Shown here piece after piece: positions 8,492-61,043 of a stretch of DNA of 64,000 nt. The translations under genes were made by a program, and so were the position numbers. The stretch lies in contig JAGBIF010000019.1 of the NCBI GenBank assembly GCA_017935065.1, positions 64,985 to 128,984 on the forward strand, read 5' to 3'. The notes under the pieces were generated by a model. That model was given only the letters and a program-made list of their open reading frames with translations. It did not search any database and was not told where the DNA came from. Position 1 is the stretch's first letter. Each line of letters starts with the position of its first letter. Source of the DNA: Clostridia bacterium. Its GTDB lineage: Bacteria; Bacillota; Clostridia; Oscillospirales; CAG-272.

Positions 8492-8523
8492 GTGCGCTCG
8501 CTTTGCGGGCGCATTTTTATTTT
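8492..8523 (+). terminator. Intrinsic terminator-like hairpin inside the 5' leader of the LRR gene (possible attenuator)
   Basis: A ~10-bp GC-rich stem (gtgcgctcgc ttt gcgggcgcat) is followed by ttttatttt. It sits between the promoter (8361) and the RBS (8551). Confidence 0.6.
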
Positions 8524-8562
8524 GCGCCTTTGATAAGATATTTTATTAAAGGAGAAAAGAGA

Positions 8563-11500
8563 ATGAAAAAAGCATTAGTACTTATCCTAGCGCTTATCCT
8601 TGCGGTTGCGGGAATGCTTTCTTTAAGCTCGTGTGAGCTTGAGGATTTTTTGGGTTCTGCGACAAAGTTTGAGATAAGCTTCGTCGTAGACGGTCAGGTC
8701 TACGACACGGTTAAAACAAGTGGCAATGAAACTATCAGCATGCCTGAAAATCCCACCAAGGAAGGCTACACCTTTGACGGATGGTATTGGGATGAAGGAA
8801 GCTGGGAAAAGCCATTCACAGCAAATTCGCTGCTTGACGCGCCTATACAGCAAAGCATTAGCGTATATGCAAAATGGCAGACCGTTACCGAGCCTTCGCC
8901 CGATGATAATACACAAGGCGACAATAACGGTGGTACTACTACACCCGACAATAATACTCAAGGCGGTAATAATGGTGGTACTACTACGCCTGACGATAAT
9001 ACGCAAGGCGGTAATAACAGCGGAACTACTGCACCCGATACGCACGTCCACTCCCTTACTTACATCGAAAGGGTCGAAGCCATCAATTGCACTACCGAAG
9101 GCAATATTGAATATTGGCACTGTTCCGGATGCGGCAAGAATTATTCCGATGCAAACGCTGAAAATGAAGTTAGTTCTGTCGTAATACCTGCGGGACACAA
9201 CGCATCTGCATCCTCTGACGTATGCACAAGGTGCGGATTAGTTTCATTCGATGGGTTAGTATTTACCTTACTGAGCGATAGTACTTATGCAGTAACCGAT
9301 TATACGGGAAGCTCAGAAAGCGTAGTAATTCCTGCGACATATGAAAACACTTTAGTTACCGCTATCGGCGAGGATGCGTTTAGTGGTTGCAGCTCGCTTA
9401 CAAGTATTAGTATCCCGAATAGCGTAACATCTATTGGCTCAGATGCGTTCGATGGTTGCATATCGCTTAACTTTAATACGTATGATAACGCATATTATCT
9501 TGGTAATGACGAAAACCTCTACTTATTCCTTGTAGAAGCTAAGGATACTTCTATAACTGCTTGTACTATCAATAGTAATACCAGATTTATATTTTCTTCC
9601 GCGTTCTATAATTGCACCTCGCTTACGAGCATAACGATCCCGAACAGCGTAACCTCTATCGGCGAGGGTGCGTTCTATAAATGCACAGCACTAACCGAAA
9701 TCAATTTCAATGCAACCGCGATGAATGATTTGTCATCTTATAACTTTGTATTCTATAAAGCAGGACGAAATGGTAGCGGTATTAAGGTAACGATAGGAAA
9801 GAATGTAACAAAGATACCTGCATATTTGTTCTGTGTTGGTCGTTATAGTAGCTCCGATTCTCCTAAGATTACAAGCGTAGAATTTGAAGAGGGTAGCGTT
9901 TGTACCTCTATCGAAAAAAGTGCGTTCAATGGTTGCAGCTCGCTTGCGAGTATAACAATCCCGAACGGAGTAACCTCTATCGGTGATTATGCGTTCGTTA
10001 ATTGCGACTCGCTTACGAGCATAACTATCCCGAACAGCGTAACATCTATTGGCTCAGATGCGTTCGATGGTTGCAGATCGCTTAACTTTAATACATATGA
10101 TAACGCATATTATCTTGGCAATACTGATAACCCCTATTTAGTACTTGTAAAAGCCAAGGATACTTCGATAACGTCTTGTACCATAAACAGTAATACCAGA
10201 TTTATTCGTTCTCATGCGTTCGATGGTTGCGCCTCGCTTACAAGTATAACTGTGGACTCGGCTAATACAGCATATAAATCATTGGATGGAAATCTTTATA
10301 CTAAAGACGGTTCTACTCTTATACAGTACGCAATAGGAAAGAGTGATACGTCATTTACCATCCCGAACAGTGTAACCACAATCGGCGAGGGTGCGTTTTC
10401 TGATTGTAGCTCGCTTGCGAGCATAACCATCCCGAACAGTGTAACTTCAATCGGCGATGGTGCGTTCGCGAGTTGCAGCTCGCTTACGAGTGTAACGATA
10501 GGAAGCAGCGTAACCACAATCGGCTCTTATGCGTTCGGATATTGCACCTCACTTACAAGCATAACCATCCCGAACAGCGTAACCTCTATCGGCGAGGGTG
10601 CGTTCTATGGTTGTAGCGCACTTACGAGTGTAACGATAGGAAGCGGAGTAACCACAATCGGCAATTCTGCGTTCAATGGTTGCTACAAGCTTGTCGAGGT
10701 ATACAACCTTTCAAGTCTTAATATCACTAAGGGTAGCACATCTTGCGGCTACGTAGGCTGTTACGCTCTTGATATTTATACCTCAGCAACGGATGCAAGT
10801 AAGCTTCATACCACCTCTGACGGATATATATTCTATGAAGACGGAAACATCGTATATTTGGTAGGATATACAGCGAACAGCACTACTATTATTCTTCCCG
10901 ATGAATACAACGGTAAGAATTATGCTATTAATGAATATGCGCTCTATGGCTGCACCTCGCTTACGAGTGTAACGATAGGAAGTGGCGTAACCTCAATCGG
11001 CAATAATGCGTTCAAGGGTTGCACAGCACTAACCGAAATCAAATTCAACGCAACCGCGATGAATGATTTGTCCTATTCTAATTATGTATTCGCATCTGCA
11101 GGACAAAGCGGTAGCGGTATCAAGGTAACGATAGGAAAGAACGTAACTAAGATACCTGCATATTTGTTCTATACTCCTAATAGTTCCTACACGCCCAAGA
11201 TCACAAGCGTAGAATTTGAAGAGGGTAGCGCTTGTACCTCTATCGGCTCTTTTGCGTTCAATCATTGCACCTCGCTTACGAGCATAACTATAGGCAGCAA
11301 CGTAACCTCGATCGGCTCTTATGCGTTCTATAATTGCACAGCACTAACCGAAATCAATTTAAACGCAACCGCTATGAATGATTTGCCACATGATAACCTT
11401 GTATTCTCTTATGCAGGACAAAGCGGCAGCGGTATCAAGGTAACTATAGGTAAGAACGTAACTAAGATACCTGCTTATTTGTTCGATCCTTATAGTAGTA

Positions 11501-14500
11501 GCTCCTACGCTCCTAAGATTACAAGCATAGAATTTGAAGAGGGTAGCGTTTGTACCTCAATCGAAAAATGTGCATTCGCGATTTGCACCTCGCTTGAGAG
11601 CATAACCATCCCGAGTAGCGTAACCACAATCGGCGATTATGCGTTCTATGATTGCACAGCACTTACCGAAATCAATTTCAATGCAACCGCGATGAATGAT
11701 TTGTCCTATGGCAATTCTGTATTCTATAATTCGGGACATAGCGGTAGCGGTATTAAGGTAACGATAGGAAAGAACGTAACTAAGATACCTGCATATTTGT
11801 TCTGTCCTGGCAACAAACCTAAGATTACAAGCGTAGAGTTTGAAGAGGGCAGTGTTTGTACCGCTATCGGCGAGGGTGCGTTCTATGGTTGTAGCTCGCT
11901 TACGAGTATCATTATCCCGAACAGCGTTACCTCCATCGGAAATTCTGCGTTCTATAACTGCACAGCACTAACCGAAATCAATTTCAACGCAACCGCAATG
12001 AATGATTTGTCCTCTTCTAACCGTGTATTCTCTTATGCAGGACAAAGCGGCAGCGGTATTAAGGTAACGATAGCTAAGAACGTAACTAAGATACCTGCAT
12101 ATTTGTTCGCGTCGGCTTCCAAGATTACAAGCGTAGAATTTGAAGAGGGTAGCGTTTGTACCTCTATCGGCGAGGGTGCGTTCAAGTATTGTACCTCACT
12201 TACGAATATTACTATCCCGAACAGCGCAACCTCTATCGGTGAGGATGCGTTCAATGATTGCACCTCGCTTACGAGTATTACTATCCCGAGTAGCGTTACC
12301 TCTATCGGAGATTCTGCGTTCGAGGATTGCTACAAGTTTGTCGAGGTATATAATCTATCGAGCCTTGATATAACTAAGGGTAGCTCATCTAACGGTTACG
12401 TAGGCCGTTACGCACTTGATATTTATACTTCAGCAACGGCTACAAGCAAGCTTCATACAACGAGCGACGGATATATATTCTATGAGGACGGAGATACCGT
12501 ATATTTGTTAGGATATACAGGAAATAGCACCACGCTTACTCTTCCCGATAATTATAACGGTAAGAGTTATGCTATTTACAAATATGCTTTCTGTTATAAC
12601 GATAAGATTACTAGCGTTACAATCCCGAATAGCGTTACCTCTATCGGAGATTCTGCGTTCTATGGTTGCACCTCGCTTACGAGTGTGACAATAGGTAGCG
12701 GTGTTACCTCTATCGGCTCTTCTGCGTTCTATTATTGCAGCTCGCTTACGAGTATAACTATCCCGAGTAGCGTTACCTCTATCGGCTCTTATGCGTTCTA
12801 TGATTGCACCTCGCTTAACTTTAATACATATGATAACGCATATTATCTTGGAAATAATGAGAATCCGTATTTAGTACTTGTAAAAGCTAAGAATACTTCT
12901 ATAACGTCTTGTGCTATAAATAGTAATACAAGATTTATACATTCTTATGCGTTCTATAATTGCACCTCGCTTACAAGTATCACAATCCCGAGTAGTGTAA
13001 CCTCTATCGGCTCTTCTGCGTTCTCTGCTTGCACCTCACTTACGAGTATAACTATCCCGAATGGCGTTACCTCTATCGGTTATTATGCGTTCTATAACTG
13101 CACAGCACTAACCGAAATCAATTTCAACGCAACCGCGATGAATGATTTGTCCGATGATAACTATGTATTCTATAAAGCAGGACAAAGCGGTAGCGGTATT
13201 AAGGTAACTATCGGTAAGAACGTAACTAAGATACCTGCATATTTGTTCTATCCTTATAACGACAGCTCTTACGCTCCCAAAATTACGAGCGTAGAATTTG
13301 AAGAGGGAAGCGTTTGTACCTCAATCGGCAACTATGCGTTCAAGTATTGCACCTCGCTTACGAGTATTACTATCCCGAGTAGCGTAACCACAATCGGCAA
13401 TAATGCGTTCTATGATTGCACCTCGCTTACGAGTGTGACATTTGCCGAGGGCAGTCAGCTTACCTCTATCGGCAATAGTGCATTCTGGGGTTGCAACTCG
13501 CTTACGAGTATTACTATCCCGAGTAGCGTTACCTCTGTCGGTGATTATGCGTTCCGTGGTTGCACCTCGCTCACGAGTATTACTATCCCGAATAGCGTTA
13601 CCTCTATCGGCTCTTCTGCGTTCTATAACTGCACAGCACTAACCGAAATCAATTTCAACGCAACCGCGATGAATGATTTGTCCTCTTCTAACCATGTATT
13701 CTATTATGCAGGACAAAGCGGTAGCGGTATCAAGGTAACTATCGGTAAGAACGTAACTAAGATACCTGCTTATTTGTTCTGTCCTGCTGGTAGTACTTCC
13801 TACGCTCCTAAGATTACAAGCGTAGAGTTTGAAGAGGGTAGTGTTTGTACCTCTATCGGATATTCTGCGTTCCGTGGTTGCGGCTCGCTTACGAGTATAA
13901 CTATCCCGAACAGCGTTACCTCCATCGGCGATTATGCGTTCTATGATTGCACCTCGCTTGCGAGTGTGACAATAGGTAGCAGCGTTACCTCTATCGGCAC
14001 TTCTGCGTTCCGTGATTGCAACTCGCTTACGAGTATTACTATCCCGAGTAGCGTTACCTCCATCGGCGATTATGCGTTCCGTGATTGCAACTCGCTTACG
14101 AGTATTACTATCCCGAGTAGCGTTACCTCCATCGGCGATTATGCGTTCGATGATTGTAGCTCGCTTACGAGTGTGACAATAGGTAGCAGCGTTACCTCTA
14201 TCGGCTCTTATGCATTCTATCGTTGCAGCTCTCTTGATAAGGTATATATATCGGATATAGCTAAGTGGTGTGCTATTAGCTTTGGTAATTCTACTGCTAA
14301 CCCTCTGTATTATGCAAAGAAGCTATATATGGTAGGAAGCGATACACCTATTACTAATCTCGTAATACCCGAGGGAGTTACCTCTATCGGCTCTTATGCG
14401 TTCTATGGTTGCACCTCGCTTACAAGCATCACTATCCCGAATAGCGTTACCTCTATAGGTGATTATGCGTTCTATAGTTGCGACTCGCTTACGAGTGTGA

Positions 14501-15450
14501 CAATAGGTAGCGGCGTTACCTCTATCGGCTCTTCTGCGTTCGACAATTGCTACAAGCTTGTCGAGGTATATAATCTTTCCGGGCTTAATATAACTAAGGG
14601 TAGCTCATCTAACGGCTACGCTGGTTATTACGCGCTTGATATTTATACCTCAGCAACGGCTACAAGCAAGCTTCACACAACGAGCGACGGATATATATTC
14701 TATGAGGACGGAGATACCGTATATTTGTTAGGATATACAGGAAACAGCACTACTCTTACTCTTCCCGATAATTATAACGGTAAGAGTTATACTATTTACA
14801 AATATGCTTTCTACGAGAACGGTAATATTACAAGCGTAACAATCCCAAGTAGCGTTACCTCTATCGGCTCTTATGCGTTCGAGGATTGCAACTCGCTTGA
14901 GAGCGTGACCTTTGCAGAGGGTAGCAAGCTTACCTCTATCGGCAAGAATGCGTTCTATAATTGCACAGCACTAACCGAAATCAATTTCAACGCAACCGCG
15001 ATGAATGATTTGTCCTCTTATAACTATGTATTCTATAAAGCAGGACGAAACGGTAGCGGTATTAAGGTAACGATAGGAAAGAACGTAACTAAGATACCTG
15101 CTTATTTGTTCTGTCCTGCTGGTAGTACTTCCTACGCTCCTAAGATTACAAGCGTAGAGTTTGAAGAGGGTAGTGTTTGTACCTCTATCGGATATTCTGC
15201 GTTCGAGGATTGCACCTCGCTTACAAGTATAACAATCCCGAACAGCGTGACCTCTATCGACGAGGGGGCGTTCGATGGTTGTACCTCTCTTGCGAGTGTA
15301 ACATTTGAGAATGAGAGTGGTTGGTGGTATTCATCATCAAGCGAGGCAACGAGCGGAACGAGCTTTTCGTCGGATGACATTGAGAATACTTCGACTGCGG
15401 CAACTTATCTTACTTCCGATTACGTCAATTATTATTGGAAACGTGGATAA
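8563..15450 (+). CDS. Giant BspA-type leucine-rich-repeat surface lipoprotein (2295 aa)
   Basis: RBS aaaggag lies 8 nt before the ATG at 8563. The signal peptide ends in the lipobox LSSC. An N-terminal Listeria/Bacteroides-type repeat is present (EGYTFDGWYWDEGSWEKPF). Dozens of ~23-aa repeats follow, of the form F..C.SLTSITIP.SVTSIG..AF (LRR_5/BspA pattern). Confidence 0.85.
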   Translation: MKKALVLILALILAVAGMLSLSSCELEDFLGSATKFEISFVVDGQVYDTVKTSGNETISMPENPTKEGYTFDGWYWDEGSWEKPFTANSLLDAPIQQSISVYAKWQTVTEPSPDDNTQGDNNGGTTTPDNNTQGGNNGGTTTPDDNTQGGNNSGTTAPDTHVHSLTYIERVEAINCTTEGNIEYWHCSGCGKNYSDANAENEVSSVVIPAGHNASASSDVCTRCGLVSFDGLVFTLLSDSTYAVTDYTGSSESVVIPATYENTLVTAIGEDAFSGCSSLTSISIPNSVTSIGSDAFDGCISLNFNTYDNAYYLGNDENLYLFLVEAKDTSITACTINSNTRFIFSSAFYNCTSLTSITIPNSVTSIGEGAFYKCTALTEINFNATAMNDLSSYNFVFYKAGRNGSGIKVTIGKNVTKIPAYLFCVGRYSSSDSPKITSVEFEEGSVCTSIEKSAFNGCSSLASITIPNGVTSIGDYAFVNCDSLTSITIPNSVTSIGSDAFDGCRSLNFNTYDNAYYLGNTDNPYLVLVKAKDTSITSCTINSNTRFIRSHAFDGCASLTSITVDSANTAYKSLDGNLYTKDGSTLIQYAIGKSDTSFTIPNSVTTIGEGAFSDCSSLASITIPNSVTSIGDGAFASCSSLTSVTIGSSVTTIGSYAFGYCTSLTSITIPNSVTSIGEGAFYGCSALTSVTIGSGVTTIGNSAFNGCYKLVEVYNLSSLNITKGSTSCGYVGCYALDIYTSATDASKLHTTSDGYIFYEDGNIVYLVGYTANSTTIILPDEYNGKNYAINEYALYGCTSLTSVTIGSGVTSIGNNAFKGCTALTEIKFNATAMNDLSYSNYVFASAGQSGSGIKVTIGKNVTKIPAYLFYTPNSSYTPKITSVEFEEGSACTSIGSFAFNHCTSLTSITIGSNVTSIGSYAFYNCTALTEINLNATAMNDLPHDNLVFSYAGQSGSGIKVTIGKNVTKIPAYLFDPYSSSSYAPKITSIEFEEGSVCTSIEKCAFAICTSLESITIPSSVTTIGDYAFYDCTALTEINFNATAMNDLSYGNSVFYNSGHSGSGIKVTIGKNVTKIPAYLFCPGNKPKITSVEFEEGSVCTAIGEGAFYGCSSLTSIIIPNSVTSIGNSAFYNCTALTEINFNATAMNDLSSSNRVFSYAGQSGSGIKVTIAKNVTKIPAYLFASASKITSVEFEEGSVCTSIGEGAFKYCTSLTNITIPNSATSIGEDAFNDCTSLTSITIPSSVTSIGDSAFEDCYKFVEVYNLSSLDITKGSSSNGYVGRYALDIYTSATATSKLHTTSDGYIFYEDGDTVYLLGYTGNSTTLTLPDNYNGKSYAIYKYAFCYNDKITSVTIPNSVTSIGDSAFYGCTSLTSVTIGSGVTSIGSSAFYYCSSLTSITIPSSVTSIGSYAFYDCTSLNFNTYDNAYYLGNNENPYLVLVKAKNTSITSCAINSNTRFIHSYAFYNCTSLTSITIPSSVTSIGSSAFSACTSLTSITIPNGVTSIGYYAFYNCTALTEINFNATAMNDLSDDNYVFYKAGQSGSGIKVTIGKNVTKIPAYLFYPYNDSSYAPKITSVEFEEGSVCTSIGNYAFKYCTSLTSITIPSSVTTIGNNAFYDCTSLTSVTFAEGSQLTSIGNSAFWGCNSLTSITIPSSVTSVGDYAFRGCTSLTSITIPNSVTSIGSSAFYNCTALTEINFNATAMNDLSSSNHVFYYAGQSGSGIKVTIGKNVTKIPAYLFCPAGSTSYAPKITSVEFEEGSVCTSIGYSAFRGCGSLTSITIPNSVTSIGDYAFYDCTSLASVTIGSSVTSIGTSAFRDCNSLTSITIPSSVTSIGDYAFRDCNSLTSITIPSSVTSIGDYAFDDCSSLTSVTIGSSVTSIGSYAFYRCSSLDKVYISDIAKWCAISFGNSTANPLYYAKKLYMVGSDTPITNLVIPEGVTSIGSYAFYGCTSLTSITIPNSVTSIGDYAFYSCDSLTSVTIGSGVTSIGSSAFDNCYKLVEVYNLSGLNITKGSSSNGYAGYYALDIYTSATATSKLHTTSDGYIFYEDGDTVYLLGYTGNSTTLTLPDNYNGKSYTIYKYAFYENGNITSVTIPSSVTSIGSYAFEDCNSLESVTFAEGSKLTSIGKNAFYNCTALTEINFNATAMNDLSSYNYVFYKAGRNGSGIKVTIGKNVTKIPAYLFCPAGSTSYAPKITSVEFEEGSVCTSIGYSAFEDCTSLTSITIPNSVTSIDEGAFDGCTSLASVTFENESGWWYSSSSEATSGTSFSSDDIENTSTAATYLTSDYVNYYWKRG
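8905..9039 (+). repeat. 3 x 45-nt in-frame tandem repeat encoding an Asn/Gly/Thr-rich linker
   Basis: The units encode DNTQGDNNGGTTTPD, NNTQGGNNGGTTTPD and DNTQGGNNSGTTAPD, read directly from the sequence. Confidence 0.9.
13747..13872 (+). repeat. Intragenic 126-nt segment identical to 15079..15204
   Basis: Base-by-base comparison of the two segments (aagaacgtaactaagatacc...ggatattctgcgttc) showed no mismatch. Confidence 0.85.
15079..15204 (+). repeat. Second copy of the 126-nt identical intragenic segment
   Basis: Identical to 13747..13872 at an offset of 1332 nt, which is in frame. Confidence 0.85.
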
Positions 15451-52950: not shown

Positions 52951-52999
52951 GCGGGCAACTGCCTCCCCTCTTGGGGTTGCAGTTGCCCGCCTCTTTTTT
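52951..52999 (+). terminator. Rho-independent terminator of the opp operon
   Basis: 12-bp arms gcgggcaactgc / gcagttgcccgc followed by ctctttttta. Confidence 0.8.
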
Positions 53000-53077
53000 A
53001 TTCTATAAATGGATTAACGGTATTCACAAGACACAATACGCATCCCTTGTTTCATCATTATAATAATACTAAAAAGC

Positions 53078-53116
53078 AAAGGACGGACGTCGGCCCATGC
53101 CGCGCATCCGTCTTTT
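53078..53116 (-). terminator. Putative terminator of the four-gene operon
   Basis: Stem gacgga / tccgtc with an inner cggc/gccg pair. On the minus strand it is followed by ctttgcttttt. Confidence 0.5.
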
Positions 53117-53170
53117 GCCTTCTACACGCTGTCAAAAGCTATTATATCTCGTATTAAAGCGAGCTTTAAG

Positions 53171-53983
53171 CTACGCAAGCCTGTCGGTGTACTCCTTAAG
53201 TCTTTGGCGAAGTGCCTCCTCGGTGCTGCTGCTTACGATATTAATAAGCTCTCTGTGACACAGGAACAGCTCGCTGTCGGAAAGCTCCATTGAGCCAAGC
53301 TTGGTATAATCCGCCATAAGCCTCAGCATAATATCCGTCTTATTAAATGTGTGAATTCTATCGCCAAGGGACTTAAGTAGCATCATATGGATATTGCCGC
53401 CTGCAAGAGTTCTGAGACACATAGGGACACCCCGTCTTTGGTTTTCCTCGCGGTAATCGCGGTATACTCTGACAAGGGCGATAAGCTCCTGCGGTATTGT
53501 GGATATGCTTGTCAGGTCCTTAACAAGCTCGGGGACAGTAAGAGACATAGTTCTGTAGCATAGCTCCATGCATATCCTTGCCACCTCGGTTACGGCAGGG
53601 TCGGGACTTCCCTTTATAAGCGCATTTACCCTGTCTAAATCCCAGAGAAGCCTCACTTTACCGCGCCCGTCAAGCGTTGCTATACCGAAGGACCTAAGCA
53701 GGTCAAGCTCATACGAGCGCTCGGTGTCAACAGTAAGTCCCTCCATTACATTCTTTATATACCTTACGGCATCGGGGCTTAAGGTTGATTTTATAGCTAC
53801 CAGCTCATAATCAAGCGCCATATCGGCAAGCGCCTCGGGGCTACGAAGCCTCATTATAGGCTGGGTCCCCTCAAGAGATGCCTTTATAGCCTTTGCCTCG
53901 GTATAGGAAACACCCAGCTTTACCTGAATTTCGGCAGTTCCCGCCCCGGGGGTGAGGCAGGACAAATCTCTCTTCTCACTCAT
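53171..53983 (-). CDS. Hypothetical protein (270 aa), last gene of the VirD4-like operon
   Basis: The ORF overlaps the upstream gene by 4 nt (ATGA). It is predicted to be helical and cytoplasmic. No motif was recognised. Confidence 0.6.
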   Translation of the reverse strand: MSEKRDLSCLTPGAGTAEIQVKLGVSYTEAKAIKASLEGTQPIMRLRSPEALADMALDYELVAIKSTLSPDAVRYIKNVMEGLTVDTERSYELDLLRSFGIATLDGRGKVRLLWDLDRVNALIKGSPDPAVTEVARICMELCYRTMSLTVPELVKDLTSISTIPQELIALVRVYRDYREENQRRGVPMCLRTLAGGNIHMMLLKSLGDRIHTFNKTDIMLRLMADYTKLGSMELSDSELFLCHRELINIVSSSTEEALRQRLKEYTDRLA

Positions 53984-54453
53984 TTTGAATTCTTTATGTA
54001 TTCAAGCATCTCGCTATCTATGAGTGGATATACCTTGTCGTTCAAGAGGTATGCAACGCCTGCTGTGCAGAGCTGAGTTGCGTGCATTTTGCCAAGCGTG
54101 GGAATTCTTGCCTCTATTATAGTATTTATCTCAAGGTAGGTAAGCGAGCCACGCTCCACCAGCTCCTCAATGAGCTTTATATTAAGCTTCTTCATCCTTA
54201 CATTCTTAACAAAGCTCGCGCGCTTTGCCGCGGAAAGCTTTATCGGGGGCATCATATCGTGATTTACACGAAGAGCGCCCTCGGATGTGAAGAACCAGCC
54301 GCGATCCTTGAAAAAGCTAATCAGATCGCGTGTAAGGGTGTAGGTAAGCTTAAGCTCATACTGAAGCTCAGGCAGGGATATCACAAGCTTATCCGCGCAA
54401 TAATCAAGAATTCTTTTTACATTTTCAATTGCTACCATATAATCACCTGTCAA
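53980..54453 (-). CDS. Small protein with two winged-helix-like units (FtsK-gamma-like pattern)
   Basis: 157 aa. ISLPELQYELKLTYTLTRDLISFFKDRGWF..EGALRVN resembles the FtsK gamma pattern (S..QR.L.IGY.RAAR.I..ME..G.V). The second unit is LIEELVERGSLTYLEINTII. It has 4-nt overlaps with both neighbours. Confidence 0.5.
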   Translation of the reverse strand: MTGDYMVAIENVKRILDYCADKLVISLPELQYELKLTYTLTRDLISFFKDRGWFFTSEGALRVNHDMMPPIKLSAAKRASFVKNVRMKKLNIKLIEELVERGSLTYLEINTIIEARIPTLGKMHATQLCTAGVAYLLNDKVYPLIDSEMLEYIKNSK

Positions 54454-56123
54454 TCAAAGTTTGCACGTGTGCTTTTAGGTACGTATTCGTATTTCGGATC
54501 CCCCAGAATAAAGTCGCTCTCGTAGACGTACGGCGGCTTGTTATCCTTGGAAAGCTCGGGGCACATATAGTATCTTTCGAGGCGCGACCAGGTAACGTCC
54601 GAGTTCATTCTCGTAATGATGCACTCGCCTACCGCAAGGCAGGAAAGCGTGCTTACGGGAATTACGGGTATGGTTTCCTTCTGGTACTGAGCGATATGCT
54701 CACCCTCGCCGTTGACCGCGGACATAGCCGAGTATATCGTATGCTCTCCGCACTCGTGTGAAAACTCCTTCTTCGTCTCGGGGTTATTAGTGCCGAGGAA
54801 TACGTGCATATTAAGGTTATCCTTTATTATCTTCGCGTTGTTCTGTCCGTATACGTTATCAAGCTGGGCATAGGACTGTATAATCAGCCAGAACCAGATG
54901 TTACGTCCTCCGCAGGCGGTAATTACGCTGTCAAAGTCATTGAACTTTGGCATATTTCCGAACTCGTCAAGCACGAAGTAGAAGGGACTTTTTCTGGGAC
55001 GGTTGCCATTTTGCCTTGTCATATTGATAAGGTTTTTGTAAAGGTCGGTGAGGAAAAGTCCGATAATATCATAGTAAAGCTTGGTCTCGTCCTTCATCGC
55101 GATAAACACGGCACAGGGCTGCTTATCATCGTCGAAGTCGGAAAAGCTGAAGGTGTTGGCGCAGGTTATCTGTCTTATCGCACCGTCGTTTATCTTCGTC
55201 ATAGCGGTGGCAAGGGTACTCATATAGCCGTCCTTTGTCACCTCTGCCTTGATAAACATAAATCTCTGCACCAAGCGGTAGGCAATAGAGGTATTCTTGT
55301 CGCGCCTGTCAAAGTATTCATCGGTAAACGCATTATCCGCCCTGCCTATTCTGTCATATATTTCAAGAAGGGTGCTGAGCGAGAAGGTATCCCTTGTGAT
55401 GACGGTATATTTATCGCTGGGCACGCTGTCTTCGAGCATTGAGAATATAAGTCCTTTGAAAATAGAACGCGCTCCGTTCATCCAGGACGCATCCTTATCC
55501 TGTGTGGGGGGGCACATAACGTTGGAAATCTCCTCAACCCTCGCCTGCACCTCGTAAAGTATGCTCTTACGCTCGGCATTTATCGCATAGGAAAGCCGTG
55601 TGTCATCGCTATATTTCTTTCCCCTGAATACACTATAATAATTGCCGTTCTCAAGAATGGCGTCAACCTCGTCCTCAACGTGCAGGTATCTCTGATAGAG
55701 GTCAAATATAGGCGTAAAGGGGTTCCATCTGTCGGACTCCGAGGGATTGACGAAGTTCAGAAGAATAATTCTGTAGCCCTGCTCGGCAAGCGTCGGGGCA
55801 AGCGAATCAAATATCTCAAGCTTAGGGTCGGTGAATACCATACTGCACTTGTTCTTTCTCGTAGCAAGAAAGCTGCCGTAGGGTATAACGAAGGACTGTG
55901 TCTTACCCGATCTTGTCGCGCCGATGGTGAGAACGTGCGTGTCGGGGACGGTGTTTACATAGAGCTTTCCGTCCTCCTTGCGCCTTATGGAAAGAGGTGT
56001 ACCCTCTACTACCGTCTCGGGAAGCTTATCCCACGGCACCGACTCGCCAAGGTAGGAATCAAGCTCGGTATAATGCACAACTCTTGTATTTTCATAATCC
56101 TTAAATACATCAATTTTTTTCAT
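54450..56123 (-). CDS. Soluble (TM-less) VirD4/TraG-family coupling-protein-like ATPase
   Basis: The ATG at 56123 follows the RBS gaggtg. Walker A GATRSGKT in the context HVLTIGATRSGKTQSFVIPY, then FTDPKLEIF and RWNPF. Walker B is FYFVLDEFGNMPKF, followed by WLIIQSYAQLDNVYG. The N-terminal 70 aa are hydrophilic with no TM helices. Confidence 0.8.
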   Translation of the reverse strand: MKKIDVFKDYENTRVVHYTELDSYLGESVPWDKLPETVVEGTPLSIRRKEDGKLYVNTVPDTHVLTIGATRSGKTQSFVIPYGSFLATRKNKCSMVFTDPKLEIFDSLAPTLAEQGYRIILLNFVNPSESDRWNPFTPIFDLYQRYLHVEDEVDAILENGNYYSVFRGKKYSDDTRLSYAINAERKSILYEVQARVEEISNVMCPPTQDKDASWMNGARSIFKGLIFSMLEDSVPSDKYTVITRDTFSLSTLLEIYDRIGRADNAFTDEYFDRRDKNTSIAYRLVQRFMFIKAEVTKDGYMSTLATAMTKINDGAIRQITCANTFSFSDFDDDKQPCAVFIAMKDETKLYYDIIGLFLTDLYKNLINMTRQNGNRPRKSPFYFVLDEFGNMPKFNDFDSVITACGGRNIWFWLIIQSYAQLDNVYGQNNAKIIKDNLNMHVFLGTNNPETKKEFSHECGEHTIYSAMSAVNGEGEHIAQYQKETIPVIPVSTLSCLAVGECIITRMNSDVTWSRLERYYMCPELSKDNKPPYVYESDFILGDPKYEYVPKSTRANFD

Positions 56124-56138
56124 TGCCGTCACCTCACC

Positions 56139-57767
56139 TTAAAAGCCGAATTTTACGGTGTTTTTGAGAACACCCTTCAGAACGAGAGTGAGACACTCAT
56201 CGTCAACGACACCGCTCTTATCCTCAAGCGCCATATACTTTACAATCTCGTCAATAGCATCCTCAATCTGCTCACAGGATTTACCCTTTAGCTTTTCTAT
56301 AACAGAAGAAGATAGAGTGACGTTTTCAATATCGTAGGCATCAAGGTAGCGCTCAAGAATTTCGTATATTACGCAGCCCTTCTCGGCATCGCTGATGGGG
56401 GCTAAGCGTATAACGTCGCAGTACTGCTCAAGCTCACCGTCAGGCTCGCTCTGTGAGAACAGAATAGGAAGTATTCCCGAAAGGTCAATTCCGACCGATG
56501 GCTGAAGAATACGGAAATGCGCTCTTGTGCCTGCGTCAAGGAATTTGCAAAGTGAGGGCATAAGTCCCGGATTGATTGCGTGAACAAAGTCTATCATAAA
56601 TACAGTAGACATAGTGCGGCTGATGGCAATCTCGCTGATAAACACGTTGCTCGTGCTTTGCGAGAAGGTATAATCCCCGAAGTGTCTTGCGTCAAGCACT
56701 CTTATGGGGTTTGCGCCCAGCGCTCTGCCGAGTGCGCGCTTGTATTCACCGAGCACAAAGGCATCTCTACAGACAAGCAGAAGCGGCTTGTAGTGCGGTC
56801 TTGCCCTGCCCTTGATGCCGACAAGGTTACTTTTTATTCTGCGAATCTCGTCCTCTCTTTTAATTGACATATCCGAGAACGCCCCTCTGTCCCAGGTCAT
56901 CGGGGTGGTAGCGTCGGCATAGGCGGGAATTCCGTCATAGTGCGCCATCGTATTCTTGTTATAGCTCTCAATTATCATCTTCTTATCAGACGGGGAAATT
57001 ACGCCCGAATAGATGATATGCTCAAAGGTGACGTCACAGATATTACGCTCGACCGCGCCGAGGCAGAAGGCACGCTCAAGAAGTGCGGAGCATTCGTCGC
57101 TTGCGGCCTCGCTGACACCGTATGCCTGACTTACGAGATCGGCAAGCTCCTTGGTGTCAGAGCCCTTGTCCGAGGCAAGTATTCTCGCGATACACTCCTG
57201 TGCGCGCGAGGGGTCGAAGTAGGCAAGGAAAAGGTTTGCGTCAAGGCTGTTCCATCTTGCCGCGTGATTAAGGTTTACAAGCGCGCGGCGGGGGTTCTTT
57301 CCAATAGCGTAGCCTGTATAATTGAGGAACGCAAGCCCTATCATCGCGATAATATTACCGACCGATATACCCTTGAGAAGCGCATCGGTAACGGCATCGG
57401 GGTTGAGGTTTTCTACCTCGGGAAGAATATCCTTGGCACAGCGAAGCGCAACACGCTTTGCCGAGAGGATGCGCTTATCGTCGGGTGTAAGCCCCGCGTC
57501 AATGCCTCTTACCTGCGCATACTCAAGCATACGGCAGGCACGCTCATACTCCTCAAGAGTATTCATATTGTAGTAGTCCTCAGAAAACGAAAGCTCACGG
57601 AAGCGGTCAAGCAGCTCCACGTCGTCAATGAGGTATATTTCAGCGAGCTTATTGAATATCTCAATATCCTCCGCTCTGCTTATAAGACCGCCAACGAGCG
57701 CCTCTAAAAGATAGGCGGTGCCGAGAAATTTTGAAAAAAGCTTATCCTTTGCTATCATTAAATTCAC
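56139..57767 (-). CDS. Sel1/TPR-like N-terminal half fused to a Clp-type AAA+-like module lacking Walker A/B residues
   Basis: 542 aa. Sel1-like region GLAFLNYTGYAIGKNPRRALVNLNHAARWNSLDANLFLAYF. The C-terminal half follows the AAA_2 layout: PLLLVCRDAFVLGEYKRALGRAL sits where GxxGxGKT is expected, VFMIDFVHAI sits where hhhhDE is expected, and a lid-like LAPISDAEKGCVIYEIL follows. Confidence 0.55.
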   Translation of the reverse strand: MNLMIAKDKLFSKFLGTAYLLEALVGGLISRAEDIEIFNKLAEIYLIDDVELLDRFRELSFSEDYYNMNTLEEYERACRMLEYAQVRGIDAGLTPDDKRILSAKRVALRCAKDILPEVENLNPDAVTDALLKGISVGNIIAMIGLAFLNYTGYAIGKNPRRALVNLNHAARWNSLDANLFLAYFDPSRAQECIARILASDKGSDTKELADLVSQAYGVSEAASDECSALLERAFCLGAVERNICDVTFEHIIYSGVISPSDKKMIIESYNKNTMAHYDGIPAYADATTPMTWDRGAFSDMSIKREDEIRRIKSNLVGIKGRARPHYKPLLLVCRDAFVLGEYKRALGRALGANPIRVLDARHFGDYTFSQSTSNVFISEIAISRTMSTVFMIDFVHAINPGLMPSLCKFLDAGTRAHFRILQPSVGIDLSGILPILFSQSEPDGELEQYCDVIRLAPISDAEKGCVIYEILERYLDAYDIENVTLSSSVIEKLKGKSCEQIEDAIDEIVKYMALEDKSGVVDDECLTLVLKGVLKNTVKFGF

Positions 57768-57795: not shown

Positions 57796-58326
57796 TTATA
57801 AAAAGCATCTTTTGTAGCTTTCAATAGCAGCGTTGATTACCTCTATTGCCTCATCTCTTGCCATAACCTCATCAACAGCGGTGGTCTTGTTTTCAAGGTT
57901 CTTGTAGACGGTGAAGAAGTGTCGCATCTCCTCAAAGATATGGCGAGGTAGGTCGCTTATGTCCTTATAGTTGTTGTAGGTAGGGTCGTTCATCGGTATG
58001 GCTATTATTTTTTCATCGCGCCTGCCGTTGTCTATCATATTGATAACTCCGATGGGATAAGCGCGCACGAGCGACATCGGCTCAAGTGGCTCGGAGCATA
58101 GAAGAAGCACGTCAAGCGGGTCGCCGTCATCGCCGTAGGTCCTCGGTATAAAGCCGTAGTTTGCGGGATAGTGAGTTGAGGTATAAAGAATTCTGTCGAG
58201 TATGATAAGTCCTGTTTCCTTGTCAAGCTCATACTTCTTTTTACTTCCCTTTGATATCTCAATTACCGCGATAAAATCCTCCGCCGAGATACGGCTCTCG
58301 GAAATGTCGTGCCAGATGTTTGCCAT
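57796..58326 (-). CDS. ppa: Family I inorganic pyrophosphatase
   Basis: 176 aa with [24 protein letters not shown] and the KIIAIP region. Confidence 0.9.
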
Positions 58327-58370
58327 ATACTTCTCCTTTTTGTAATCAGCCTTGAAAATTATGCGTAAAA

Positions 58371-60209
58371 TCAGCTTCCGCTGTCAATTTTATAGGTAGG
58401 AACCAGCTCTCTTACCAGCTCCTTCATTCTCTCGCTCTCGCCGTGCGCCGCCTCGTCAAGCTCGGTAAGCTTATCCCAGAGCGCATCCTCGTCCATAGGG
58501 ATGGGACGGGCAATACTGATAAGACCGTTTGGCGTCTTGGAAAGCCCCTCCTCTGCCATAAGGCGCTCCTCGTAGAGCTTCTCACCGGGTCTTAGCCCTG
58601 TTATCTTGATTTCAATATCGGTGTGAGGCTCGAAGCCCGTAAGCCTGATAAGTCTCTCGGCAAGGTCGTATATTCTCACCTGCTCACCCATATCGAGCAC
58701 GTAGATTTCGCCGCCCTTGGCGTACGCGCCCGCCTGAAGCACGAGGCTTACCGCCTCGGGTATGGTCATAAAGTAGCGGATGATGTCCTTATGCGTTACC
58801 GTAACGGGGCCGCCTGCCATAATCTGCTTTTTGAAAAGAGGTATAACCGAGCCGTTTGAGCCGAGCACGTTTCCAAACCTTACCGCAACAAAGCTCGTCT
58901 GCGAGCGCTTTGCGTACGCCTGGATTATCATCTCGCATATACGCTTGGTAGCACCCATAATATTCGTGGGGTTTACGGCCTTGTCGGTGGATATCTGCAC
59001 GAAGCGCGATACTCCGTGCTTATCGGCACAGCTTACGAGATTGTAGGTGCCGCAAACGTTGTTCTTTACCGCCTCACAGGGGCTGGTCTCCATAAGCGGC
59101 ACGTGCTTGTGAGCGGCGGCGTGGAATACTATCTCGGGCTTATATGTTTCAAAGACCGAGTCAAGCTTTTTCTTATCGCGTATCGAGGCTATAAGCGTGG
59201 TGATCTTAAGCTCGGGATGCAGGCGGATAAGCTCCTGCTCAATATCGTACGCGCCGTTTTCGTAAATGTCGAGAATAATGAGATGCGCGGGATTTTTAGT
59301 CGCGATCTGTCTGCAAAGCTCGCTTCCGATAGAGCCGCCGCCACCCGTGATTATAACGCGCTTGCCGCTGATATAGTTCATAACCTCATCAAGGTTTACC
59401 AGAACGGGATCGCGTCCCAAAAGGTCGGTAACGTCAACGTCACGAAGCTGAGATACCGATACCTTGCCGTTCATAAGCTGGTAAAGCCCAGGCATAACCT
59501 TTATCTCGCACTTGGTGCCGAGACAATGCTCGGTTATTCTCTTTATGTCGGAGGGCTTTGCGGTGGGGATAGCGACTATTATCATCTGCGCGCGCGTTTT
59601 GTCGGCAATACGTCTGATATCCACCGTACCTCCAAGCACTCTCACACCGCAGAGATAGGAGCCGTGGAGATCGGGGTTATCGTCTACTATTCCAACGGGA
59701 AGATAATTTATCTTATCGGTGGTCTGAAGCTCCTTCAGCACAGTAGTGCCCGCATCTCCCGCGCCGACGATGAGCACGCGCTTCATTCCTCTGGTAGCGT
59801 GGCGCCTGTAAACGGTCATAAGCATATCGTAAAGGCGTACGTAGCAGGTCGCGAAGGCTGCCGAGATGAAGAAAAACAGAGTTGTAGCAACAACCCACGC
59901 AAAGGACATATGCTCGTTAAAGATAAGAAGCACCAGGTTTATCGCGGCGGTAAAGACGACTATAATTATCGCCTTGAAAAGCTCCAGAAAGCTTGCGTGC
60001 CTGAAGGATGCCGAATGCAGGTGAAGTCCGAATATCGCGAGGATTATTAAGATCGAGCAGATCAGCACCGAGGTAAAGCCTACCGTGGTGTAGGAGCCAA
60101 GATCTCCGAAAATAAGAAGCGTCGAAAGGACGGTGGATGCAAGATAGGATATGAGATACGCGAAGAGAACGAGGGCAGTTTTCATCTTATGCTTCAGAAA
60201 GAATTTCAT
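58371..60209 (-). CDS. Membrane-anchored polysaccharide biosynthesis NDP-sugar 4,6-dehydratase (CapD/PglF/WbpM family)
   Basis: 612 aa with 4-5 N-terminal TM helices, [22 protein letters not shown] and [13 protein letters not shown]. Confidence 0.85.
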
Positions 60210-60407: not shown

Positions 60408-61043
60408 TTAATACTCGTCAACACCGAGAAGCCTGCAAAGTCCTGAGAAATCATGCGGGAATACACCGTTTCCCTCATAAAATCTCGGCGCGATACCGTC
60501 GTTATACTCAACGAGAAGGCGCCATCTCACAGGCTCGCTGAAGCCCGTACCGTAATGCTCGGGAAGATAGCAGTCACGCCAGGCACCGATGTCAAGCGCT
60601 GATATTTCCTTTAAGAAATTAGCGCGGTCCAGCGATATTTCAACCGATTCTATTCCGCGACAGACGCGAGTAAGCAAGGCTCTGTCGGGGTAAAGTCTGA
60701 CCTCGTAGAAGCTGTCGAGGTATATACCGATAGTAAGCGATATTTTTCTGATTGACTGTAAATTATCGGCAAAATCCTTTGCCATCAGCTCGGTATCGGT
60801 AAGCTCATCCTCCTCGCCGAGTAAAGAGAGCGCCTCCCTTGCCTCGGAAAGATATCCAACGCAGGCACCAAGCTGATCACGCTCGGTCGGGAAGGGGTGC
60901 GTCTCATAGGGGTATGAGGGCGACTCCATCTTATACTTCAATCTTTCAATTTCGCTCTTCAGCTTTTTTATCTCTCCTCTTACAGCTTGCGCATCCTTAC
61001 CGTCAAGATACATATCACGGTAAATATCCTTGCTCAGTAGCAT
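60408..61043 (-). CDS. Hypothetical protein (211 aa), N-terminal coiled-coil
   Basis: Monocistronic, with its own promoter, RBS ggagatga and terminator. No family was recognised. Confidence 0.6.
   Translation of the reverse strand: MLLSKDIYRDMYLDGKDAQAVRGEIKKLKSEIERLKYKMESPSYPYETHPFPTERDQLGACVGYLSEAREALSLLGEEDELTDTELMAKDFADNLQSIRKISLTIGIYLDSFYEVRLYPDRALLTRVCRGIESVEISLDRANFLKEISALDIGAWRDCYLPEHYGTGFSEPVRWRLLVEYNDGIAPRFYEGNGVFPHDFSGLCRLLGVDEY

Follow-up and report, generated by a model that had tools for sequence, protein, structure and literature searches.

A soluble VirD4/TraG-type ATPase in a conserved, non-conjugative module of gut Clostridia, with a possible link to ClpP

The locus raises the question of what an ATPase of the VirD4/TraG type, the superfamily of the type IV coupling proteins (T4CPs), does among the housekeeping genes of a chromosome. 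It lies in a 64,000-nucleotide stretch of contig JAGBIF010000019.1 from a Clostridia bacterium (assembly GCA_017935065.1, positions 64,985 to 128,984 of the forward strand); we call this whole stretch the window and give coordinates within it. Four open reading frames (ORF1 to ORF4) occupy its minus strand between positions 53171 and 57767, all of them present where the initial annotation, made from the sequence alone, had placed them. Our analysis shows that they form a conserved, selected and non-conjugative module, which combines a T4CP-type ATPase with a Lon-like pseudo-ATPase carrying Sel1 repeats and with winged helix-turn-helix (wHTH) proteins that resemble the gamma domain of FtsK. What the module does is read here from sequence. 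We tentatively suggest that gut and rumen Clostridia carry an undescribed chromosomal cluster, here reduced to four genes, and that this cluster may be a regulatory or defence machine guided by DNA and linked to ClpP.

The second gene, ORF2 (54450..56123, minus strand, 557 aa, with its ATG start at 56123), encodes the soluble T4CP-like ATPase. It matches the Pfam families T4SS-DNA_transf (7e-43), TraG-D_C (1e-27) and TrwB_AAD_bind (1.2e-17, over residues 197-471), the last corresponding to an all-alpha domain inserted in the nucleotide-binding domain (NBD). The Walker A motif GATRSGKT (residues 68-75; 55899..55922, minus strand) and the Walker B motif FYFVLDEFGN (residues 381-390; 54954..54983, minus strand) are intact, and in an alignment of 32 homologs G68, A69, T70, G73, K74 and T75 of the former and F381, F383, L385, D386, E387, F388, G389 and N390 of the latter are invariant. 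The N-terminus contains no hydrophobic or transmembrane (TM) segment. Pfam, the alignment and the hydrophobicity profile agree with the initial description of a VirD4/TraG ATPase with intact Walker motifs and no TM helices. Contrary to the emphasis of the initial annotation, the missing helices are not special; the CD1115 family and TraJ of pIP501 lack them too, and T4CPs without TM helices, TraJ among them, form an established class (PMC7431656). ORF2 scores 236.8 bits against NCBIfam NF045973 (the VirD4-like CD1115 family), under the curated cutoff of 250, and shares 25-30% identity, never above 30%, with plasmid T4CPs. Against solved structures, the ATPase profile matches Cag5 (1.6e-14) and TrwB (1e-3). 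The match to PF01580 (FtsK_SpoIIIE) has an E value of 0.15 and covers the P-loop alone, short of an FtsK alpha-beta motor. ORF2 is the sole component of the four with intact ATPase motifs.

In ORF1 (56139..57758, minus strand, 539 aa from its ATG), a helical N-terminal domain with Sel1 repeats is followed by a pseudo-ATPase domain of the Lon AAA+ type, and the chain ends in a ΦGF tail. The sequence by itself has no match in Pfam, NCBIfam, PHROG or PADLOC (a weak Pfam match to Cas_APE2256, E at least 0.04, was treated as noise), and word-index protein searches, with the single sequence and then with a 42-sequence profile, returned the query and one ortholog only. An exhaustive search of representatives recovered a family of 263, nearly all 525-555 aa long; its profile finds the Lon AAA+ module at 3.5e-6 and Sel1 at 3.6e-6. 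The Sel1-like repeats (about residues 118-185; 57204..57407, minus strand) are all-helical in the AlphaFold2 model, and over its positions 122-185 the family profile hits the Sel1 repeat proteins 8sxq and 6onw with E values of about 4-6e-6. The model, calculated from 69 sequences, has a predicted local distance difference test score (pLDDT) of 94.1 and a predicted template modelling score (pTM) of 0.87, and its top 34 matches in Foldseek are all Lon (LONP1/LonA, E 5e-9, prob 1.0). The initial annotation had called ORF1 a Sel1-like protein with a Walker-less AAA+-like domain; profile, model and Foldseek bear this out and refine the domain to the Lon type. At the position of Walker A (56751..56792, minus strand), ORF1 reads YKPLLLVCRDAFVL in place of the GPPGVGKT of Lon, and the family consensus there, YxPLCxxSxxxYxL, contains no GK[ST]. 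Because the P-loop position is degenerate across the family, we take ORF1 to be a pseudo-ATPase; with Walker A missing family-wide, it does not qualify as an active AAA+ unfoldase. The Lon protease domain is also missing from ORF1, the chain stopping past the AAA+ lid with no match to Lon_C.

The final approximately 10 residues of ORF1 are disordered in the model (pLDDT about 52) and end in K-F-G-F. The last three (TTC GGC TTT, 56142..56150, minus strand, directly before the TAA stop) form a putative ClpP-docking motif. In 126 of 141 family representatives (89%), the final 16 residues contain the pattern [FYILVMW]G[FYLW], as compared to 3.8% of background windows, usually in the forms FGFGG, YGFGG or FGYxGG. 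In ClpX, the tripeptide IGF(G) docks into ClpP, and the ΦGF tail of the ORF1 family resembles this motif.

ORF3 (53980..54438, minus strand, 152 aa from its ATG) is a tandem wHTH protein, as the initial annotation had it. It matches the hidden Markov models (HMMs) of two families, one of approximately 180-aa proteins (D180, E 4e-5) and one of approximately 300-aa proteins (W300, E 1.9e-7), and its alignment to D180 spans both winged-helix units. An FtsK-gamma-like domain is assigned to the N-terminus of ORF3 (54292-54381, minus strand). Eight of the 17 members of D180 match Pfam FtsK_gamma (PF09397; best 2.7e-6), and the top PDB match of the D180 profile is the gamma domain of Escherichia coli FtsK (2j5p, 0.0034). 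ORF4 (53171..53983, minus strand, 270 aa) has the same sequence as MBP3308411.1 of a 'Clostridia bacterium' metagenome-assembled genome (MAG). It had been described as a protein with no recognisable motif; instead, it is a divergent member of W300, a paralogous family with which it is colinear and which consists of two wHTH units and a helical extension. ORF4 has a truncated gamma-like HTH (53867-53938, minus strand), a second wHTH at about 53642-53704 (minus strand) and a helical C-terminal domain past it, and the AlphaFold2 model (pLDDT 78, pTM 0.65) shows the same HTH remnant, single wHTH and helical C-terminal domain. Its ortholog at the syntenic locus L008 of our survey matches the W300 HMM at 5.9e-5, and the top PDB match of the W300 profile is again FtsK gamma (0.019). 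Searched as a whole chain, ORF4 has no significant fold match in PDB or BFVD. When BLASTP compared ORF3 and ORF4 with the genes downstream at distant loci, nothing was found, the homology surfacing with the family HMMs only; Pfam matches of ORF3 to YabP and of ORF4 to homing endonucleases (E at least 0.04) were treated as noise. The profile matches assign ORF3 and ORF4 to two paralogous winged-helix families with an FtsK-gamma-like N-terminal domain. At three loci (L030, L034 and L040), D180 is fused to the C-terminus of the ATPase, which is the order found in FtsK (motor, then gamma).

To place the module among its relatives, 185,579 species genomes were scanned with the ATPase profile (two peptide patterns), which returned two classes of loci. 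Class i comprises 43 scanned loci and three distinct loci from contig look-ups, 46 in total, from Oscillospiraceae, Acutalibacteraceae, Faecousia, 'Ruminococcus' and Eubacteriales MAGs of herbivore and human guts, the rumen included. The class-i ATPase is about 550-585 aa long and TM-less. Immediately upstream of it lies an ORF1 homolog at 44 of the 46 loci, the other two being contig ends, and separate look-ups of two distant members of the ORF1 family found each of them flanked by ClpP on one side and the ATPase on the other. Directly ahead of ORF1, 34 of 41 loci carry a divergent ClpP gene, often with a 4-nt overlap. The D180 gene comes after the ATPase. The four-gene co-occurrence that the initial annotation had put forward as a check thus held for ORF1 and the ATPase, which are always together, and failed for ORF4; the conserved core is three of the four genes, and ORF4 varies by lineage. 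In the clade of the window (L001, L008-L010), ppa stands upstream in place of ClpP, a matter of lineage synteny, and the accessory genes are all absent. We consider the ClpP paralog upstream of ORF1, together with the IGF-like tail, to be the likely key link that the initial annotation missed.

The class-i ClpP scores 199 bits against TIGR00493 (cutoff 308.6) and falls under all curated ClpP cutoffs. Its N-terminal approximately 22 residues cannot be aligned with solved ClpPs (for example, L014:565-1200), and the Y-L-Y ahead of INSPGG is changed to L-T-[IL]-L, with a 7-aa insertion just before. IGF loops and acyldepsipeptides (ADEPs) bind at these positions, and the docking pocket of the class-i ClpP may be remodelled. 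A phage prohead protease was considered for this protein and rejected (ClpP 210 versus 81 bits; the context is not phage-like). The usual gene order of class i is ClpP, ORF1, ATPase, D180, an extracytoplasmic function (ECF)-like sigma factor, an approximately 90-aa HxxxCxxC protein, two YbjN-like proteins, a CARF-PD-(D/E)xK nuclease, W300, a metallophosphatase, SIR2, a RyR-like protein and an approximately 1150-aa AAA-FtsH-like protease. The clusters are co-directional, and their content differs from locus to locus; examples of the larger ones are L022:6516-7741, L014:5833-8142, L036:11718-15224 and L096:8050-9614. The ECF-like sigma factor (4.8e-5) and the small HxxxCxxC (ZAS-like) protein are found in 21-23 loci. 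In the larger clusters, the nuclease assignment has an E value of 2.4e-28, no obvious cyclic-oligonucleotide synthase accompanies it, and the large protease is soluble with ClpA/B-AAA, FtsH-AAA and M41 domains. Several of the proteins end in short, conserved acidic/aromatic tails (MFDF, PFSF or DDDDDDLF in the ATPase, LFDxLFDDE in D180 and DDDD..LF in W300), which recall the tails of SSB type or those bound by tetratricopeptide repeats (TPRs). The window copies are degenerate; ORF2 ends in ...STRANFD (54453-54473).

No linkage to a relaxase or a type IV secretion system (T4SS) is found among the annotated class-i loci and gene clusters. In class ii (Christensenellales), the ATPase is approximately 670 aa long with two N-terminal hydrophobic segments resembling TM helices, and these ATPases are canonical coupling proteins. 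A T4SS pilin and a VirB4-like gene are present in 26-31 of the 37 class-ii loci (L050-L086; for example, L072:1345-1710 and L080:1-2086); the hosts are Christensenellales and 'Onthoplasma' MAGs, and the neighbours are housekeeping genes, namely U32 peptidase, CobW and Mfd-like genes. Class ii may represent a chromosomally fixed T4SS.

The module is under selection. Compared with a strain 97.6% identical in DNA, the numbers of synonymous and non-synonymous changed codons are 26/1 in ORF1, 42/0 in ORF2, 5/0 in ORF3 and 12/6 in ORF4. As synonymous changes predominate, all four are real genes under purifying selection. Amino acid identity to the syntenic locus L008 is 92% for ppa, 90% for OppA, 87% for the ATPase, 69% for ORF1, 42% for ORF3 and 29% for ORF4. 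The partner proteins, the DNA-binding ones above all, outpace their neighbours in divergence. The specificity determinants of conflict systems diverge fast in like manner. Two independent metagenome assemblies of near-identical strains, one of them that of the 97.6%-identical strain, show an apparently split ATPase gene. A pseudogene was rejected for L090, in which the break is a run of N and no frameshift (L090:12232-12241); the second split gene is at L095:7862-9534, and the rejection rests on L090. Automated annotation would label such an N-interrupted ATPase a pseudogene.

The surroundings of the module are ordinary. The annotated genes of the window, in agreement with the initial annotation, are housekeeping genes: the shikimate pathway, Liv-type and sugar ATP-binding cassette (ABC) transporters, Rnf, Opp, ppa, a CapD-like epimerase, CotF and PadR. 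Annotation is partial at about 29.4-31.2 kb, at 60.4-61.0 kb and in the last 0.3 kb; across the annotated remainder of the 64 kb, Pfam finds no family of relaxases, VirB4, pilins, integrases or transposases. Flanking direct repeats around the module do not exceed chance, and its GC content is ordinary, with no anomaly. These results uphold the initial statement that the locus has no conjugation context. No homolog of ORF1 is present among 72,556 plasmid or 50,697 phage records, the ATPase family has just three matches in viral contigs, all distant, and none of ORF1 to ORF4 matches PHROGs. Elsewhere in the window, a 2315-aa surface protein with LRR_5/Flg_new domains (8503-15450, plus strand) lies directly past the aromatic amino acid biosynthesis operon. 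A 211-aa ORF with no Pfam family (60408-61043, minus strand) lies between the CapD-like gene and cotF and is kept in near-identical strains (L090:6610-7245).

The four genes are closely spaced. For ORF1, the ATG at 57758 is preferred as start because AAGGAG sits 8 nt upstream; the alternative GTG at 57767 gives the 542 aa first reported in place of 539. The 15-nt gap between ORF1 and ORF2 holds and is filled by the ribosome-binding site (RBS) spacer GGTGAGGTGA, immediately past the TAA stop of ORF1. Of the two 4-nt overlaps described initially, that of ORF3 and ORF4 (ATGA) is confirmed; that of ORF2 and ORF3 needs the alternative TTG start of ORF3 at 54453, which gives the 157 aa of the initial annotation. 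The ATG at 54438 is likelier in view of the GGTGA RBS ahead of it, the start of the L008 ortholog and the public assembly gene calls, and leaves an 11-nt spacer after ORF2. Upstream, ppa (inorganic pyrophosphatase, Pfam Pyrophosphatase; 57796..58326, minus strand) ends 37 nt before the ATG of ORF1. It is probably co-transcribed with ORF1, since this gap carries no terminator. The candidate promoter of the unit is a TTGACA-18-CATAAT site upstream of ppa (58358..58387, minus strand), a pattern match scoring 11/12 in the consensus scan. Past ORF4, a predicted intrinsic terminator (53070..53124, minus strand) consists of a hairpin (-31.3 kcal/mol, z = -6.27) with a U-run after it and overlaps in part a scan match. 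With no terminator between ppa and ORF1 and this strong hairpin and U-run past ORF4, the likely transcript is ppa-ORF1-ORF2-ORF3-ORF4. The terminator of the convergent oppA, an 18-bp-arm hairpin followed by a plus-strand T-run (52951-52990), is separate and stands between oppA and the module. As a component of the system, ppa was considered and rejected; its adjacency is lineage synteny, broken in L001, L009 and L010 by a minus-strand gene.

In the machine that we propose, ORF1 would be an inert ring or hub whose disordered ΦGF tail docks the ClpP peptidase, which in the window genome would be one encoded elsewhere. The Sel1 repeats would hold the partners, perhaps by their acidic/aromatic C-terminal tails. 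A VirD4-like hexamer would carry out ATP-driven translocation as the sole motor, and the gamma-like wHTH proteins would target or gate it on particular DNA, in parallel to FtsK, where gamma lies past the motor. The output would be DNA-dependent, ClpP-mediated proteolysis that switches a response, and the response genes of the larger clusters (the sigma/anti-sigma-like pair, the CARF nuclease, SIR2 and the FtsH-like protease) would point to conflict or defence. A defence role is plausible; the CARF nuclease and SIR2 of the larger relatives and the fast evolution of the partner proteins speak for it. Several points weigh against this proposal. The module sits here in conserved housekeeping synteny, from ppa/capD-like to opp/rnf, and in no defence island, and the window and its close clade have neither an adjacent ClpP nor any putative effector gene. 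The proposed ClpP link is based on gene adjacency and a three-residue motif, and the IGF of ClpX is an internal loop, whereas the motif of ORF1 is a C-terminal tail. We know of no role of T4CPs in feeding proteases. The likeness to FtsK gamma is weak (Pfam 2.7e-6, PDB 0.003) and holds at the level of the families, ORF3 and ORF4 alone falling below Pfam significance; PADLOC yields only a generic P-loop match to mad8.

Two other readings keep the proteolysis. A regulated-proteolysis machine with no role against foreign DNA may be made up of ClpP, the Lon-like protein as adaptor and an unfoldase of T4CP type; it would serve a developmental or stress programme by setting the stability of transcription factors, either the wHTH proteins or, in the large clusters, the anti-sigma-like protein. 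The ClpP paralog and the ΦGF tail fit this, as do the ECF-like sigma factor and HxxxCxxC protein of 21-23 loci, the acidic/aromatic tails of the ATPase and the wHTH proteins are possible degrons or docking peptides, and the best solved relative of the ATPase profile, Cag5, is the T4CP of a protein-translocating T4SS. We nevertheless judge it unlikely: the CARF nuclease and SIR2 are typical immune effectors, the fast divergence of ORF3 and ORF4 suits conflict better than housekeeping regulation, and unfoldase activity is not known for T4CPs. A bolder version, which we think improbable, would make the triad of ClpP paralog, Lon-like pseudo-ATPase with its ΦGF tail and soluble T4CP motor a new class of ATP-dependent protease giving immunity to plasmids, conjugation or phage. 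Here the coupling protein, and not an AAA+ unfoldase, would capture its ancestral substrates (proteins bound to incoming DNA, such as relaxase-like ones), chosen by the fast-evolving FtsK-gamma-like readers, and feed them to ClpP. Substrates on incoming DNA would therefore mean anti-plasmid, anti-conjugation or possibly anti-phage immunity, and the window would hold the minimal sensor-motor core.

The remaining readings dispense with ClpP. The gamma-like wHTH proteins, the motor-gamma fusions of three relatives, the syntenic and apparently vertical inheritance among housekeeping genes in the window clade, the nearby CotF spore-coat gene and the window's lack of effector genes would all suit a housekeeping cytoplasmic pump of FtsK/SpoIIIE type with gamma-like subunits in trans, acting in chromosome segregation, dimer resolution or sporulation of these spore-formers, with ClpP incidental. 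Such a pump seems doubtful to us, given its narrow spread (263 ORF1 clusters; class-i loci in about 45 of 185,579 species), partners that evolve far faster than the housekeeping neighbours, the absence of a membrane anchor and a motor of VirD4 rather than FtsK alpha-beta type (FtsK_SpoIIIE E 0.15); it also leaves the Lon-like pseudo-ATPase and the ΦGF tail unexplained. ORF2 could finally be an orphan coupling protein from an integrative conjugative element (ICE) or plasmid, with unrelated neighbours, as its superfamily and its nearest named kin, the CD1115-type VirD4-like proteins of conjugative Firmicute plasmids, might suggest. This decayed remnant is contradicted by the evidence and very improbable. 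The initial annotation had held that homologs confined to T4SS/ICE loci would indicate a remnant; close homologs occur outside such loci, and the true T4SS-linked relatives are a separate, TM-bearing class. Identity to plasmid T4CPs reaches 30% at most, the Walker motifs are invariant with 42/0 synonymous to non-synonymous changes, and the ATPase is linked to ORF1 at 44 loci in several families. In the annotated parts of the window, no T4SS, relaxase or integrase gene was found, flanking repeats do not exceed chance, and the GC of the module is normal.

Should the ClpP-linked machine proposed above prove right, a type IV coupling protein would have moved from conjugation into a conserved chromosomal machine, a case of exaptation. 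ClpP would be driven by a RecA-type motor via a nucleotide-dead Lon-like adaptor, which would widen its repertoire of partners, and rapidly diversifying subunits would apply the DNA-reading principle of FtsK gamma in trans. It would also give a handle on a family of at least 260 uncharacterised proteins of approximately 540 aa. The recurrent gut and rumen Clostridia cluster, with its CARF nuclease, SIR2 and sigma/anti-sigma-like genes, is a candidate immune or regulatory system. The class-i ATPases are automatically annotated as 'conjugal transfer', a label that misleads surveys of the mobilome.

The initial annotation did not recognise the combination as a described system, and this stands: no profile places the set in a characterised pathway, and no described system with this combination was found in PADLOC v2 or the searched literature. 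With PADLOC-DB v2, the ATPase matches mad8 (2.2e-8), ORF1 and ORF3 give no match, and ORF4 has a chance-level match to a homing endonuclease (HEase, E 0.039). The mad8 assignment was rejected as a generic P-loop match; an unrelated AAA protease reaches 5e-7 with this model. As precedent there is only a note on NsnA of Menshen (NsnABC), a few NsnA proteins having a T4SS-DNA_transf domain, the TrwB-like domain being proposed on computational grounds as a DNA sensor in a defence context (PMC12065111). The module differs in that PADLOC detects no Nsn proteins, the partners are others and the T4CP-like protein is here a complete, stand-alone ATPase. ORF2 shares with the T4CPs of the CD1115/TraJ class the P-loop NBD, the all-alpha domain, TraG-D_C, Walker A and B and the lack of an N-terminal TM segment. 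It differs from the CD1115 T4CPs in being 25-30% identical, under the family cutoff, and in having no relaxase, VirB4 or pilin nearby; unlike them, the class-i ATPases are always preceded by a member of the ORF1 family, and that family has no homolog in the plasmid or phage records.

FtsK and SpoIIIE belong to the same ATPase superfamily as ORF2, and a gamma-like wHTH would accompany the motor of the module, C-terminal to it when fused, much as gamma does in FtsK; FtsK gamma reads the FtsK orienting polar sequences (KOPS) and sets the direction of translocation (PMC2680272). The module, however, has a VirD4-type motor and a separate two-wHTH gamma-like polypeptide in the form of two paralogs, and it has no membrane domain, linker or link to XerCD/dif. 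The C-terminal half of ORF1 has the LonA AAA+ fold, but without Walker A and without the Lon (Ser-Lys) protease domain, and Sel1 repeats replace the Lon N-terminal domain. The [FYIL]GF(GG) tail of the ORF1 family recalls the IGF(G) of ClpX, and most relatives have ClpP as a neighbouring gene; in contrast to the Clp ATPases, the motif is C-terminal and not part of a loop, and the sole predicted active NTPase of the operon is a RecA-type T4CP and no AAA+ unfoldase. The function that we propose is hypothetical; the architecture takes parts from conjugative T4CP systems, FtsK, Lon and the Clp ATPases without showing the features that define each of them.

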